The notes under the pieces were generated by a model. That model saw only the letters and a program-made list of their open reading frames with translations, made no database searches and was not told the origin of the DNA. DNA of 64,000 bases. Origin: Amoebophrya sp. A120. Its lineage: Eukaryota > Protista > Dinoflagellata. Of the stretch, positions 11,687 through 43,731 are shown piece after piece. Position 1 is the first letter of the stretch. The number at the start of each line of letters is the position of its first letter. A program made the translations under genes and the position numbers. The DNA lies in assembly GCA_905178155.1 (NCBI GenBank), contig CAJINV010000001.1, positions 1,663,904-1,727,903 of the forward strand. The letters run 5' to 3'.

Positions 11687-14600
11687 TCACTTTCTCCTGA
11701 CGTAGAACAGCACATAGGCGGACCGGTCGCCTTCCACGCTTCGTTCGCTCATCAGCTGCGCCGAGGAATCGGAGATGCTGGCCCAGTCGGTGCCGTTGAT
11801 GCGACACGCGGCGGTGTAGTGCCCTCCGCCCATCGATTATCCACAGTAAATTTCCCTTACACGTCACGTACGAATACGGTCTCTGCATGACAAAACTTGG
11901 CTTCGATCCTAGTTCAGCATGACAAGTTGTACGCTCCAAATTGGTGAAGTTTGTGATGCATCTTGTACATGTATGGGAAATTATTTGTATTGCATATCGA
12001 TCCGCTGTGTTGCGAGACGGCCGCCAGGTCGTACACGTACTGGCCGCGGGTTGCGGTGGCCGCCTCGCAGAACTCGGTAATGTCCATCTGCTTGGTCGGG
12101 AACCGAACGAGCGTGTTCAGTTTTTCCCGCGAAAACCGGCTGTGGGAGAACCGCTTCATGTGCACAACCATCACGCGCGGAGGCTTGTATCTGGGAACAA
12201 AGATGTTGCTAGTAGAGAAAGTCTACGCATGCAAAACGAGGCGAGATGATGGCTCCCGACTTGCACTTGCACTTACGACGACCCATTCTGGAATCTAAGA
12301 CCAATACCGCAAAAATCATTCGCCTTCCTGCTTCAAAAATAAAAAGAAACCAACGAATGAATTTTTATAAGTACATTGTGAGCCTTTTGCTCATGTTTTT
12401 CCTGTTTTTGCAGTTTTCGCACTTGTAGTCGGCGTCCAGTGTCTCCACCGCCGTGAAACTCCGAAAACAGTCCAGCAAGTCCACCTGATCCGTGCGCACG
12501 TGCGGGATCGGCAAACTTAAGTCCAGAAACACGTCGAAGGTCCAGGATTTGTGGCCGCAGGTCCCGCACCTGGTCTCCGACATCAGCTGCCCGCCAAAAA
12601 TGTCCGTCATCGGACTGTTACCGTGGCTCATGCTGTAGTTCCACCATCGCAAAGCTGCGTCGTCCACGGATTCGCCCTTGATGTCCTTCATCTCCTGGTA
12701 TTTCGGCTTCGCCCGGACCCGGTTCAGATCCTCGTGCAACCCGTCCAGCAGAAACCGCAGGGCCTCGTGCGAGTCCTGCTGCTGGTACCCGGAAAACTGC
12801 GGCGCGTGACGGATCAACAGGTTCCGCAGGCCGGCGGGGGATATCAAATGTAAAAACGTCTGGGTCTGGAAGAGTGCGCGATTTGTCATGCAGCTTTTTC
12901 ATGACCCATGAGGTCTGGAATGCAGGACCTAGCACGACAGATTCTGCGCGGTCTTTCTCATGCCTATCCTGCATGAGAAGCTGCCTCCCGACTTGGTCAA
13001 AACTGGACGACTTTTGGCAATCATGCAACACAGATTTTTGCATGCTTCAGATTTAGCATGACGGGTTGCATTCTTCCAGACCCAGACATTTTTACATTTG
13101 ATAGGGGAGAGCACCGCACCGGCGCGGCTCTGGTGCACGTCCGACAAAAGGGCGTGAAACTCCCGGGCGAGGCGGCCTTTTAGGGGGGCGTATGCATTGC
13201 AAATATGTCTGGGTCTGAAAGAGTTCGAATTTGTGATGCGAAGTCTACATCATGAGAAAATCTGTCGTGCATGGCTAGCAAAAGACCCCAGTTCTTGTTA
13301 CCGAATCCGAAAGACGGGGTTTGTCATGCGGATCAGGCATTGGGGTACCTGCTCAAAATCTGCGATCATGCTAGAGCTTGCATGCCAGACGATCTGGGTC
13401 AGGCAAAAACTGCATGACAGATCTCACATTCTTCCAGACCCAGACATATTTGCATTCGATAGGGCGGTGCGGTCGTTCAAATCTCCGTCGGTGAAGCGCT
13501 CGCGAAAATAGGCCTGGATCGTAGTTTCATTGAGTTGACTTTTATCTTTACACGTCTAGAACAAGACGCGAACTCGTGCAGGTGCAGGTTCAAAAGAGCT
13601 GCCATCACGACATCTAAACGTAGAAACATACCAAAAGAAGTAGTGCTCACCTGCAGCTGCGGTATGCTAAGCAGGCACTGGATGGAGGAATTTAAGAAAC
13701 ACGTGTTGCCCAAATTTCGCAATCCAATCATGGTCCTGCTCCAATTCGTAAACGGCGATCTGCTGCTGCTACTCGACGCTGCGATTTCCCCGCTGCCAGA
13801 ATTATTGCTATCGTAGCCGCTACTCGCAGCCATGCGATGTTCCGCTTCTCGGTGCTGGCCAACCCCGGGATGTGCCCCGCCGAGTGAGGAGCGCATCATC
13901 CCAGGTCTTGTTGCTATTGATGAAGATGCGCTAGAGCTAGTGTTGTACTGTTGTTCCATTTGCTCGGCACCACCAGCTCGGTAGTTCGTCGGCTGCCTCA
14001 ACTGCGACTCCCGAAAGCGGCTCGCCGCACTGCTGCTCGCGGACGCGGTAATGTGGTCACCGCCACCCCCGCGTGTCGAGCTGCTGGTGGTTGAGCGCGT
14101 GCTGTCCGTGTGGGGATCGCCGGACGATAACAAGTGCGGCTTGACGATTTTTGTGGAAGACGACGGTAATTCCACTTCGTACGGATTGCTGTCGCGAATC
14201 GACGCCGCAATGCGCTGCCGGTGGATCTGGTCGCGCTCCTGCTGCCGCTCGTAGATTTCCCGCAGCTGTCGCTCGTGCGCGTCCTCGGCCTGTTGCCGTT
14301 GCAGCAACTGTTGATCTCGCGGATCGATCGTCCTACTGCCTCTGCGGCTGCTGGACGCGGAGCTGATTTTCTCTTCGTGCTCGCGGAGCCTTCTTGTGTT
14401 GGCCGACGAGCTCTTGTCCGAGAGGAGATTCAGTACATTGGGATCCACGTGCCGCATCCTAGCGGCAATGTCGCGGTCGTAATACGCAGATCGCACGTTG
14501 TACGCAGAGCTGGAGCCACTTCCTGGGTCCACAACTCCAACATCGTGCTCGGGCGGGGTGCCACGTCTGCTTCCCCCGGCGGCGGCCAGGCCGGACGTCG

Positions 14601-15888
14601 CACCGGTTGGCGGGAGCCCTGGTTGCCCGGCGCGGGTGCCGCGGCTCGCATACCGGCTGCCAGACGGGGCGGAGACGCCTGTAAGAAAGAGGTGCTCGAT
14701 CATCTTGGTCCGTGGTGATGTAGTACTGACTATTCTCTCTCCTGCACAGCCTTTAACTTTATTTGTTTCTGTTCAAATAACGATAACCAGAACCACACTC
14801 ACACTGCCAGTGCTGAGAGGCAAAAATAACCAAATACTCAAGTGGGAAACCAACAAGGTACCTCCGGCGCCTGTTCTACTGCCACTGTACACGGAATCCA
14901 TGATGTTGGGTATTTGCGACTTGCGATTGTGCAAAGGCTCTTCCTTTGATGAGCCGCGGCTGCCTCCGCTGGACTCGCGCTCGCCCACCCGCTGTGCGTG
15001 CATCGAAATGAGAGCATTGCGAACACTGTGTGGAGTTTAATATGTAGTTTTTTGTCGGAGCGGTCATGTGGTTTTAGAACCTCGTCGGACGAAGTGAAAT
15101 GAACCTCAAAATACAGTCGTGCAACTATTTCTCGACTTGAACTTCTATTCCAAGCAAGGACTAAACAAGGCATAGCATCGACGCCCCGCTGGCCTGTTTC
15201 ATGGACCCACCAGCTCTGCTCTGCTACGAGTATCTGAGTAGACACGACCTTAGAGCCAAAAAATACCCGCTGCCCGTTTTACCGGCCGCGCCCGAGGCTG
15301 CGTAGCTGTTGGCAGCAGGGGGCATCGGCCGGTCCAGGTCATCCGCGGCGAAGGCGCCATACCTTTTTTTAGAAGTACAAGTAGTGCTGTCGTCTACTCG
15401 ATGAAAATATTGTTTGTTTTTCTCTAGAAGTGGAGCCGACGACGTCGACGAAAGCACAGCGGGCGGAGGCTGGAAAAGGTTCAGAACCCATGCCACACGA
15501 GGACCCAGCAAGTGGCTCTGTAAGCGCCCCGGACAGAAACACCAGGTGCATGTGCGGTGCATAGATACAACTGATCTACTAAAAACCGCATGGATGGTCT
15601 TCAAAGGAGCAACTGGACTTGCGCCGGGCGCATTACAGCCATTTCAACAACTACGCCTGCTCATACACTAAATCTTGTTTGTATTTATGGAAATGAACAA
15701 GACGAAGAGGCACTAGGACGATGAAGTAGATTGCTGATGAGTTTATCTTTATGCGTAGTAGATTCAATACATGCAAAAATATACGCGCTAGACGAAGAAC
15801 CACGACGCCCGAAACGGTCTTCCTCCACAGCCAGCCGCGTCGGTAGGTCGGTACCCGCGCGCCGCTTTGACGAGAACAGACTCCGCAT
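11687..15888 (-). CDS. Ubiquitin-specific protease (peptidase C19, USP2/8/21-like); 5' exons uncertain
   Basis: Cys box GLRNLGNTCFLNSSIQCL, QQDSHEALRFLLDGLHEDLN and CGTC/CENC zinc motifs. The His box SQHSGS|MGGGHYTA forms only after introner removal; ends SAYVLFYVRRK* at 11687. Exons upstream of 14680 are tentative. Confidence 0.9.
11838..11996. mobile_element. Introner family C, 159 bp, inside the USP His box
   Basis: TAT...ATA ends, imperfect TIR, DR TCGAT; reverse-complement homologue of 43012-43160. Confidence 0.9.
12842..13103. mobile_element. Introner family B, 262 bp
   Basis: TIR TATCAAATGTAAAAACGTCTGGGTCTGGAAGA / TCTTCCAGACCCAGACATTTTTACATTTGATA; DR GGGGA; join AVLSP|AGLRNL. Confidence 0.93.
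13191..13461. mobile_element. Introner family B, 271 bp
   Basis: TIR TATGCATTGCAAATATGTCTGGGTCTG / CAGACCCAGACATATTTGCATTCGATA; DR GGGCG; join NDRTA|PLKGRL. Confidence 0.93.
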
Positions 15889-42436: not shown

Positions 42437-43731
42437 ATGTGGCCGTGGCTTTCTGGCCGTTCTTCACCGTGGTCATGTCGACTTCGAGTGGCACAGATTG
42501 CTTCCAAATGGCATTTGTCCTGTACCAGTTCAGAGCAGGGTCTGCGGCCCGCCTTGTCATCTCTTTCTTGTCCCAGCGCAAAATGTGTTCAAACGCATTG
42601 AACATAGTGTTGCTGTGGGACACCAGGAAAACAATTTTTTTTTCGAACCGCGCGTCGGTTTTTAAGCTGGTGAGAAGATTCTCGAAGCTGCGGTTTTGGT
42701 TTTTCCCAATCTCTTCGCCGAAGTATCTACCGCCTCTTTCATCTGGCCAAATTTGCTGGTCCGAGGGTCGTTTTTGCAGCCACGAGTAATTCTTCTTTTG
42801 TTCTTCATCAGCTGTATTATCGTTGCCCAAGAAAAAAGTCTCCCCACTGAACACATTCGCGTCCTGGTCTGGTTTTGCCCAATCTGTAACACTGGTTCCG
42901 AGGTCAGAGGGTATGCTTGAGTAGGGCGGCTGTGTCTGACCTTTTGCGGTTTCTCGAAGCTCGGGGGCGAGGTAAATCTTGCTCGCTCCCATGTAGTCTT
43001 CTTTAACCCCGTATGCAATACAAATTTCCTGCACATGTACAAAATGCATCACAAATTTGACCAACTTGGAGCATGCCACTTGTCATGCCGAATCGAATTA
43101 AAAGGAAGCTTTTCATGCAGAAACCGCATTTGTACATATACAGGAAATTTACTGGGGATACCCCGTACCCGTTAGTACCGGACACGTCGGAAACTAAGCC
43201 TTTGATGAATTCACTCGCGGTTTCCAGGGTTCTTCTCATGGGACTGACGAGAAACACAAAGCTCTGCCTCTTTTTCATCAACTCAGGATACGTCGCCGCA
43301 AACTTTCGCCCGCCTTCGAACGCCATTTGGCGACCGTGGCCCTGGCTGTCGTTCGTCAGGGGAGGGTCTCTTGCCCCGCCCCACTGGGGGATGTTGGCGT
43401 TCTTGCAGCTCTCCGCGTGCCGCATGGCGAATATCTGGACCGGACCTTCTACAGGAGGGCCTGCAGGAGGGCCCGTCCCAGGGGTAGGAGAAGGGTTCCC
43501 CGGTGTTGTAGTTTGCTCGTCCCGGCGTCCTAGGAAAATACAACCTACAGGTATGGCAATCCCGGCAAGTACCCCAACTGCCAAAAGCGTGATCCAGAGC
43601 CAGAGATGTCTTCGAAAGCAAGTAGGAACTCTCTCATCTTGCTCCCCAGGAGGAGCCTCTACTTCATCCGAGAGCAGGTGGATTTGAGCTCCTTGCTCCA
43701 CGTCCTCATTTCCTGTTCTTGGCCGCGACAT
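42408..43731 (-). CDS. Histidine phosphatase (phosphoglycerate mutase superfamily) with an N-terminal membrane anchor
   Basis: TM LWLWITLLAVGVLAGIAIPVGCIFL; FAMRHAES, LVSPMRRTLETA, APELRE and FLVSHSN; two exons joined by removing 43012-43160. Confidence 0.88.
43012..43160. mobile_element. Introner family C, 149 bp
   Basis: TATGCAATACAAATTTCCTG / CAGGAAATTTACTGGGGATA; DR CCCCG; join NGYG|VKEDY. Confidence 0.92.

Follow-up and report, generated by a model that had tools for sequence, protein, structure and literature searches.

The 64,000 nt of Amoebophrya sp. A120 DNA analyzed here (the window, whose own positions are used throughout) contain introners of the same family that lie in opposite directions in genes read from the same strand. 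How can a transcript be cleared of an insertion that it may carry either way round? An earlier note on this DNA had proposed that the copies at 11838 and 43012 are full-length reverse-complement homologues, that both interrupt minus-strand genes and need precise removal, and that the removal signal is a strand-symmetric stem with TAT/ATA ends instead of a polar donor, branch point, and acceptor. A product of the window is identical to the annotated protein GSA120T00011140001, which identifies the host genome as A120.

Mirror-image elements inserted both ways

The host of the 11838 copy is a UCH ubiquitin protease and that of the 43012 copy a histidine phosphatase by Pfam, both on the minus strand, as the earlier note had it (Table 1). 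The proposed full-length homology also held: 11838–11996 matches the reverse complement of 43012–43160 along its full length, with 122 of 159 columns identical (blastn E 1.3e-24) and a reverse-orientation score of 164, where 300 shuffles never exceeded 0 and the same-strand alignment scored 36. Once 35 nt are trimmed off each end to exclude any contribution of the inverted repeats, the interiors score z 11.7 in reverse and 2.1 in the same orientation. Both copies start with TAT, finish with ATA, and are flanked by an exact 5-nt repeat.

The better case within the window is the pair at 12842 and 13191, which are opposite copies in one gene and whose interiors score z 14.8 in reverse versus 4.7 in the same orientation. 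Family A likewise occurs both ways, with 30310 and 19601/21220 in one direction and 26043, 27033, and 34561 in the other; since the two ends of 30310 are of one type, its orientation is read from its interior alone. The 19601 copy belongs to family A as claimed but is not a simple 150-mer, as it extends to 21220 around an insertion of 1.46 kb that holds an N. The minus strand scored better for 18 of 18 window elements, weakly so for 30310, 26043, 50808, and 62964, and protein searches, weak and length-limited, gave no match for the genes that contain 19601 and 26043/27033. A loose element scan, which gave 32 matches versus 24–40 in shuffles, served as an inspection list only, and the strong window copies were selected on arm score and homology.

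Table 1 Introners, host genes, and ordinary introns in the window
Feature	Position	Strand	Details
Three introners, one minus-strand frame	1176-1458, 1521-1837, 1928-2192	.	
Ubiquitin-specific protease gene (part)	11690..14700	-	three introners and two GT-AG introns, one transcript
Family B introner	11838..11996	.	159 nt, TAT...ATA, exact 5-nt repeats 11833-11837 / 11997-12001
Ordinary GT-AG introns of ubiquitin protease gene	12191-12374, 13514-13650		
Family C introner	12842..13103	.	262 nt, in ubiquitin protease gene with 11838; gap-free to A25 ortholog
Family C introner	13191..13461	.	271 nt, opposite to 12842; 82-nt exon between; compared with A25 ortholog
Family A introner with nested 1.46-kb insertion	19601..21220	.	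flanking repeats alike in only 2/5
Family A introner	26043..26198	.	156 nt, repeat 4/5
Family A introner	27033..27184	.	152 nt, repeat 2/5; same orientation as 26043
Family A introner	30310..30463	.	154 nt, interior opposite to 26043, 27033, 34561
C-like introner	30515..30777	.	263 nt, one end CAT for TAT, repeat 3/5
Two introners	31380-31635, 35287-35605	.	
Family A introner	34561..34718	.	158 nt
Histidine phosphatase gene GSA120T00011140001	42411..43731	-	hosts 43012-43160
Family B introner	43012..43160	.	149 nt, exact 5-nt repeats; opposite to 11838 copy
Three introners	50808-51030, 55253-55565, 62964-63237	.	

Orientation was counted at 107 loci from one related assembly, without RNA, in place of a genome-wide count. 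A partner end was present at 96 of 108 pattern sites, and the flanking repeat at these 96 was an exact 5-nt match in 67 and alike in 4/5 positions in 23. One end consists of TAT, seven looser bases, and an A-run, with the mirror image at the other end (103 copies), and the TAT/ATA is near invariant (88/91). In composition the target repeats differ little from the flanks, and the junction bases are arbitrary. These are the published TAT...ATA introner elements with 5-nt repeats (Farhat 2021) and as such are already known. They recur in families across the window and the related-assembly loci, and the new observation is that all seven families with four or more copies occur both ways. Eleven Pfam-anchored copies split 4:7 by orientation, and two of them lie opposite each other in one WD40 locus (L039). 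In family A, selecting copies for an exact end gives a skew of 36:11 (p 0.0003), whereas copies taken without selection show none (17:13), a discrepancy that our best explanation leaves unexplained; also at odds with that explanation, inspection by eye of nine long or open-ended copies revealed no obvious transposase frame. Separately, 25 viral-contig matches to the end motif had no partner end and were set aside as unrelated.

Removal of the elements from RNA

A single RNA-like contig over the ubiquitin protease gene is missing the elements at 11838, 12842, and 13191, each together with one 5-nt repeat, and four piece ends and both gap sizes match the prediction. Specifically, the piece ends and gap at 11838 fit a loss of 164 nt, a piece ends at 12836 as predicted for the 12842 element plus one repeat, and a gap of 133 nt fits removal of the 13191 copy. 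The same contig also lacks the two GT-AG introns of the gene and is therefore spliced RNA. At 19601..21220, a contig departs from the genome at 21222, inside the repeat (one side observed), and the junction retains 2 to 4 bases of the upstream repeat. This RNA evidence comes from contigs, two raw-read RNA runs giving no coverage of the genes, which tells against our best explanation, and none of it covers 30150–43450, where the 43012, 30310, and 34561 copies lie. For 43012, taking out 154 nt yields 389/389 residues of GSA120T00011140001, the annotated A120 protein from which this intron is already absent; this is annotation-level evidence. Removal from RNA at non-canonical sites is thus documented for three copies by the RNA-like contig and for 43012 via annotation.

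The need for precise removal stands on frame and homology for both named copies and on RNA for 11838 only. Element plus one repeat amounts to 164 nt at 11838 and 154 nt at 43012, neither a multiple of 3, so that retention shifts the frame. The 11838 copy moreover splits the His box of the ubiquitin protease, and its flanking exons abut without indel in USP2, USP4, USP11, USP15, and the A25 ortholog. Frame restoration by itself was rejected as proof of splicing, because losing an element with one repeat always rebuilds the ancestral frame.

Could such clean junctions arise otherwise? Reverse-transcriptase jumps classically occur between direct repeats that flank a hairpin, and all RNA evidence here is cDNA-based, so apparent excision might reflect jumps between the 5-nt repeats and not splicing. 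We regard this as extremely unlikely, given that three elements are missing at once from one contig, that the 19601 copy is also left out with its repeat just 2/5 alike, and that a retained element would put genes with intact frames out of frame or disrupt their catalytic His box. Alternatively, the parasite might cut the elements out of its DNA in the stage in which it transcribes, as ciliates do with internal eliminated sequences, so that RNA copies the edited template. The Amoebophrya host lineage is alveolate, and exact loss of element plus one repeat and indifference to orientation would both be expected; however, single DNA contigs pass from flank into element unbroken at the repeat (15 of 720 joints listed) and this lineage is not known to have a separate germline, which makes DNA excision very unlikely. 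We have high confidence in the anatomy of the elements and in their removal at the RNA level.

End signals and the RNA stem

The end signal proved strand-symmetric, as the earlier note had proposed, since 5′ and reverse-complemented 3′ end profiles mirror each other in 103 unselected copies. Nor does either strand offer GT–AG ends at the observed removal sites: GT/GC–AG is found there in 5 of 150 copies, versus 6 in the antisense count used as a control (permuting the target repeats is uninformative, since the registers depend almost only on the repeat), and adding GA donors raises the figure to 14/150. A register one base before TAT spreads over 51 dinucleotide pairs among the 150 copies, and no branch-point-like motif is enriched in the sense strand. 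Two weak hints of polarity exist: an A precedes the 5′ TAT in 58/152 copies (p 0.0008 uncorrected; 35/103 in unselected copies, p 0.07), and single repeat mismatches fall along the transcript as 12, 7, 5, 5, and 3 (p 0.014). U12-type membership was rejected, because an AT–AC register fits just 6/150 copies and the minor snRNAs and minor spliceosome are reported absent from Amoebophrya (PMC7789003).

Each strand might still draw ordinary splice sites from the element ends or the target repeat, the arrangement described in Polarella and Aureococcus, and 33 of 53 copies do contain an in-frame GT/GC/GA...AG pair once the removal length is left free. This reading is highly unlikely, as it is contradicted for 11838, 12842, 13191, and 43012, which have no such option on the minus strand, and as RNA and homologs fix removal at element plus 5. 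The note's further step, that two-way insertion rules out a polar donor and acceptor, is not supported: two-way introners with spliceosomal ends are described elsewhere, and with an inverted repeat the 5′ motif read on one strand is also the 5′ motif on the other, and likewise for the 3′ motif, so that polar recognition would be served alike on both.

The main rival, to which the stem signal of the earlier note corresponds, is that an endonuclease and an RNA ligase recognize the terminal RNA hairpin and cut the flanks at set distances, as proposed for euglenids; a hairpin model for A120 introners was already put forward in PMC7789003. Mirror-image ends and arbitrary junction bases would suit such an enzyme. 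Folding predicts a terminal stem for 96 of 101 copies (partly built in by copy selection), recalling euglenid introns thought to be non-spliceosomal, and sense and antisense fold equally well, with 50/101 favouring sense. The repeats of A25 and A120 differ in sequence and share the same layout (PMC7789003), and Euglena splicing needs inverted repeats (PMC12501133). Against it, G–U pairs show no excess over A–C pairs in the transcript sense (88 vs 86; 93 of 103 copies), and hence no sign of selection for an RNA stem; in one row of the counts, that of pattern-picked copies, A–C even exceeds G–U (23 vs 6), probably owing to fixed differences between the two end types. The 11838 copy leaves the RNA despite folding no more stably than shuffled sequences (z -1.49), and the predicted fold of 43012 leaves the terminal TAT:ATA unpaired. 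The near-invariant TAT/ATA points to sequence and not pairing, and an N-T-A start appears common to the two strains (Table S4 of PMC7789003). The role that the note had given an RNA stem in removal remains hypothetical, and a hairpin-specific enzyme seems to us possible but doubtful.

A proposed modified spliceosome and its relation to known systems

A120 probably has an activity that recognizes a palindromic TAT...ATA element either way round and cuts it out with exactly one target repeat, with no fixed base at the cuts and the pre-insertion mRNA restored. The most likely agent, to which we assign a probability of roughly one half, is a modified U2-type spliceosome reading the mirror-image end code. 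Non-autonomous inverted-repeat elements would have inserted into exons in either direction, between arbitrary 5-nt target repeats, through a DDE-type enzyme making a 5-nt staggered cut without choice of orientation. The 5′ cut would fall one base before TAT, giving an intron start N-U-A that would keep U+2 and A+3 of the ordinary donor without its G; the 3′ cut would be measured four bases past ATA, with a T-run in place of the pyrimidine tract, and the terminal stem may help bring the intron ends together. Because the end code is an inverted repeat, both strands would offer a donor-like and an acceptor-like end.

Several observations are consistent with this spliceosomal reading. T is always second in the nine commonest non-canonical boundary pairs of A120 (GT, CT, AT, TT; Table S4, PMC7789003), and each of the nine commonest A25 pairs begins with TT, the A25 repeat itself beginning TTA (PMC7789003), so that both strains would start N-T-A. 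The bases retained at the 19601 junction allow the proposed register, and we count the weak hints of polarity and the lack of a wobble excess, which would mark a selected RNA helix, on the same side. Nearly all spliceosomal proteins are present in Amoebophrya, with U1 not found (PMC7789003, section 10), and Fritillaria sets a precedent for a U2 spliceosome acting on non-GT-AG inverted-repeat introns (10.1101/2025.08.15.670264). On the other side, the first base and last four of the intron would be arbitrary, beyond anything in Fritillaria or Polarella; the transcript is also spliced at ordinary GT-AG introns; the Table S4 boundaries, placed within ambiguous repeats, may be a product of the aligner; and the lack of an enriched branch-point-like motif and the frequent terminal stem also speak against a spliceosome.

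If A120 does have such an activity, it would be a transposon-erasing mode of splicing, whether carried out by a spliceosome that uses an N-U-A donor and measures its acceptor or by a machinery that is not spliceosomal at all. Insertion would then be harmless anywhere in an exon and in either direction, which would explain how introns could be gained by the tens of thousands. Beyond the published elements and boundaries, exact excision from both orientations confines the cis code to ~15 bases per end, alike on both strands. The pairs 12842/13191, in one gene, and 11838/43012 are natural matched pairs for orientation effects. Should the N-U-A register hold in both strains, it would point to a spliceosome working without the first G and the final AG; should it fail, a second nuclear splicing machine. 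Introner screens demanding 5′-to-5′ similarity, such as the filter of PMC12130899, will split or undercount these families; the same study describes a family in A120 whose frames are LTR-integrase-like and whose ends are non-Ginger.

The closest comparison is with the A120 introners of Farhat et al. 2021 (PMC7789003), from the same organism, which share TAT, seven looser bases, and at least 3 A, direct repeats of 3–5 nt (5 bp in the example), and non-canonical boundaries. The text and supplement text of that paper mention orientation for genes only, and we found in them, figures aside, no statement of two-way insertion, a strict 5-nt repeat, or an N-T-A register; nor did we find a paper stating two-way insertion in the openly readable text of the Amoebophrya literature. 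Physarum introns resemble the A120 elements in their inverted repeats (R-TATC...GATA) and proposed transposon origin, but are true U12 introns with a TA target repeat (10.1101/2020.10.12.336362). Euglenid nonconventional introns share terminal inverted repeats, short direct repeats, non-canonical borders, and coexistence with GT-AG introns, and differ in a CAG/CTG end motif, a purine/pyrimidine border bias, and reported circular products (PMC12501133, PMC11282704). Introns of Fritillaria borealis are MITE-derived and non-GT-AG, number thousands of copies, and are reportedly removed by U2 (10.1101/2025.08.15.670264; PMC11282704); their sites are fixed repeat ends (AG-AC, AG-AT), whereas the A120 cuts fall in variable target repeats. 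Finally, the introners of Polarella glacialis and Aureococcus anophagefferens are, like those described here, inverted-repeat DNA transposons with target repeats that form introns either way (10.1101/2020.10.14.339549; PMC10228655), often with a bias to one orientation (10.1101/2020.10.14.339549). A120 shares with them intron formation in either orientation; they keep spliceosomal G-H...AG ends, with GT/GC/GA donors and AG acceptors from the target site, whereas the A120 junctions are arbitrary and seldom carry such sites.

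Two-way insertion in the window and beyond

Elements 11838-11996 and 43012-43160 (introner family B), both bounded by TAT and ATA and flanked on each side by exact 5-nt direct repeats, are opposite-orientation copies of one family, as the earlier note had claimed. Alignment of the first with the reverse complement of the second gives 122 identical columns of 159 and a score of 164 (300 shuffles, at most 0), and the interiors alone reach z 11.7 in reverse versus 2.1 in the same orientation. Alignment also confirmed two-way insertion of family A. The strongest in-window case, absent from that note, is the family C pair 12842-13103 and 13191-13461 (interior z 14.8 versus 4.7), separated by 82 coding bases in the ubiquitin protease gene that also hosts 11838. 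Minus-strand hosts were supported by coding scores, higher on the minus strand across all 18 junctions of the 18 elements retained (several exons being in the training set), and by Pfam matches, all consistent with minus-strand coding in 24 frames picked solely from that strand.

A 23-nt end motif yielded 107 loci outside the window (the 80 listed are all from one assembly), with elements 79-96% like those of the window. A partner end was present at 96 of 108 distinct motif sites, with an exact 5-nt repeat in 67 and a 4/5 match in 23. A coding model for the host strand, correct in 46/51 held-out pieces, made a call at 39 of 89 junctions, 7 in one orientation against 32 in the other; a Pfam search of 286 frames gave host anchors to 11 copies at 10 loci, split 4 to 7. 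The resulting set holds 152 distinct elements, with 50 loci assigned a host strand, two duplicates dropped and 103 elements not picked by motif (17 in the window). Counted at motif-found loci plus the window, all seven families with at least four copies occur in both orientations (19:17 for A and B merged, 5:13, 4:5, 4:3, 4:1, 4:1 and 2:2; B by itself 3:4), with host-strand errors possible in about one call in ten. Family A is skewed 36:11 among motif-picked copies (p 0.0003) and stands at 17:13 among unselected ones (difference p 0.08). Introner density is very high, with 86 more elements in 118 kb of flanks, and some copies have one end type on both sides, which suggests that ends have been exchanged.

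The elements are the known A120 introner system, given their anatomy and host protein. With 43012 and one repeat removed, the surrounding histidine phosphatase is identical at 389/389 positions to GSA120T00011140001 of Amoebophrya sp. A120; the ubiquitin protease's best relative is from strain A25. Farhat et al. describe A120 introner repeats starting TAT, followed by seven looser bases and then at least three A, direct repeats of 3-5 nt, and 29,850 copies in 1,954 families (PMC7789003). No obvious transposase frame was seen by eye in nine long or open-ended copies, and the enzyme that mobilises the elements was not found.

A further repeated element, lacking inverted ends (19643-21104), lies ~40 nt inside the family A introner 19601, with copies of a direct repeat of 8-9 nt on its two sides (19635, 21105); it includes a T-run, a short tandem repeat and an N at 19868. 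Its start recurs at a comparable position within family A copies at two outside loci (L080 1501-1761 and 2967-3023; L061 2013-2273), as if introners were its target. The 1.6-kb composite still seems to be left out of RNA. Repeats within 36644-42434 are of a different type, with no TAT ends, and four further genes fit one co-oriented block.

Other repeats and genes in the window
Feature	Coordinates	Strand	Detail
Inverted repeat	61353-61631		107 nt, 97% complementary, 65-nt spacer; 44-nt palindrome-like unit per arm
Dispersed direct repeats	36644/40633/41181, 40648/41161, 40909/42208		within 36644-42434
Inverted pairs	37861/39599, 38591/38773		within 36644-42434
Aldolase	4183-6092	minus	Pfam
14-3-3	53341-53769	minus	Pfam
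P-loop protein	55523-58519	minus	Pfam
Prenyltransferase-repeat protein	59334-61115	minus	Pfam

Removal from RNA

Because the ancestral frame is always restored when an element and one repeat are taken out, intact frames and homologs give the needed length, not the act of removal. The exons flanking 11838 adjoin without indel in solved USP2, USP4, USP11 and USP15 chains; the three protease junctions (11838, 12842, 13191) are gap-free against the A25 ortholog, and shifts of one codon either way scored lower in 6/6 trials. Judged from these alignments, the needed length is exactly the element plus one repeat.

Contig 9 of run X3, which we took as RNA by guess, matches 11200-11831, 12375-12836 and 13650-14677 with no other letters in these three pieces, the gaps being 195 and 133 letters; it also lacks two GT-AG introns. 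The prediction for 11838, 12842 and 13191 is matched by each of the four inner ends and by the two gap sizes, the sum alone being constrained at 13191. That such junctions are a cDNA artefact is the least probable alternative. Excision from DNA is improbable: contigs of the DNA run X1 pass unbroken from flank into element. Contig 11 departs from the genome at 21222, within the unequal repeat of 19601 (depth 6.5; one side of the junction); if removal equals the element plus 5, the mRNA would retain 2-4 upstream-repeat bases, and neither cut would fall at TAT or ATA. The older copies 27033, 19601, 62964 and 30515, with flanking repeats alike at 2 or 3 of 5 positions, could locate the true cut. 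Raw RNA reads X9, from another sample of the same species label, contain part of a family C element (13021-13103) fused to other sequence and do not cover window exons.

End signal and mechanism

The 5' end profile mirrors the reverse-complemented 3' profile, and 88 of 91 copies keep TAT and ATA intact (mismatch-tolerant scan). In any of six registers, GT/GC-AG at the element plus 5 occurs in 5/150, or 14/150 with GA added, and AT-AC in 6/150 (antisense control, 6 and 8); neither strand thus carries conventional splice sites, so that the earlier note's strand-symmetric signal survives the refutation test set for it, and use of hidden canonical sites is very improbable. The note's further step, to a stem in place of a polar donor, branch point and acceptor, does not follow from the symmetry, which is compatible with stem or sequence. 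Folding predicts a stem for 96 of 101 copies in the sense direction and for 93 in the antisense, partly by construction. Selected RNA pairing should favour G-U over A-C in the transcript sense, where we found no excess (88 versus 86), most copies perhaps being too young; 11838 is absent from the RNA-like contig though its predicted fold is no better than shuffles. Element 30515-30777 and copies at three outside loci (L015, L036, L048), each with one terminal triplet changed and open frames still interrupted, are natural end-code mutants.

Among nine leading boundary pairs per strain in Table S4 of PMC7789003, T is second in all those of A120, and all those of A25 begin TT, its repeat starting TTA. 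Taken with the repeat starts, these pairs suggest an N-T-A intron start in both strains, matching a normal donor at U+2 and A+3 but lacking its G+1, aligner bias being possible. This register is compatible with the 19601 junction. As weak polar hints, A precedes the 5' TAT in 58/152 (p 0.0008, uncorrected; unselected 35/103, p 0.07; largely family A), and repeat mismatches fall by position (12, 7, 5, 5, 3; p 0.014); both fit it. Repeat composition resembles that of the flanks save at position 5.

At roughly even odds (0.5), we favour a modified U2 spliceosome, which would remove the TAT...ATA elements, because in Amoebophrya most spliceosomal proteins are present with U1 undetected (PMC7789003), and the U2 spliceosome of Fritillaria borealis is reported to remove non-canonical introns (10.1101/2025.08.15.670264; PMC11282704). 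A Euglena-like cut-and-ligate system is a tentative second candidate.

Comparison with other introners

Hairpin-aided splicing of A120 introners was already proposed by Farhat et al. (PMC7789003). Two-way insertion in Amoebophrya is unstated in the main and supplementary text of that paper, and in the freely accessible text covered by a wider literature search. It is apparently unreported for this known system yet expected, and it sharpens the question of how the elements are spliced. Polarella classes and Aureococcus also create introns in either orientation (10.1101/2020.10.14.339549; PMC10228655), but with G-H...AG ends unlike those of A120; orientation independence alone is therefore neither new nor an argument against the spliceosome.
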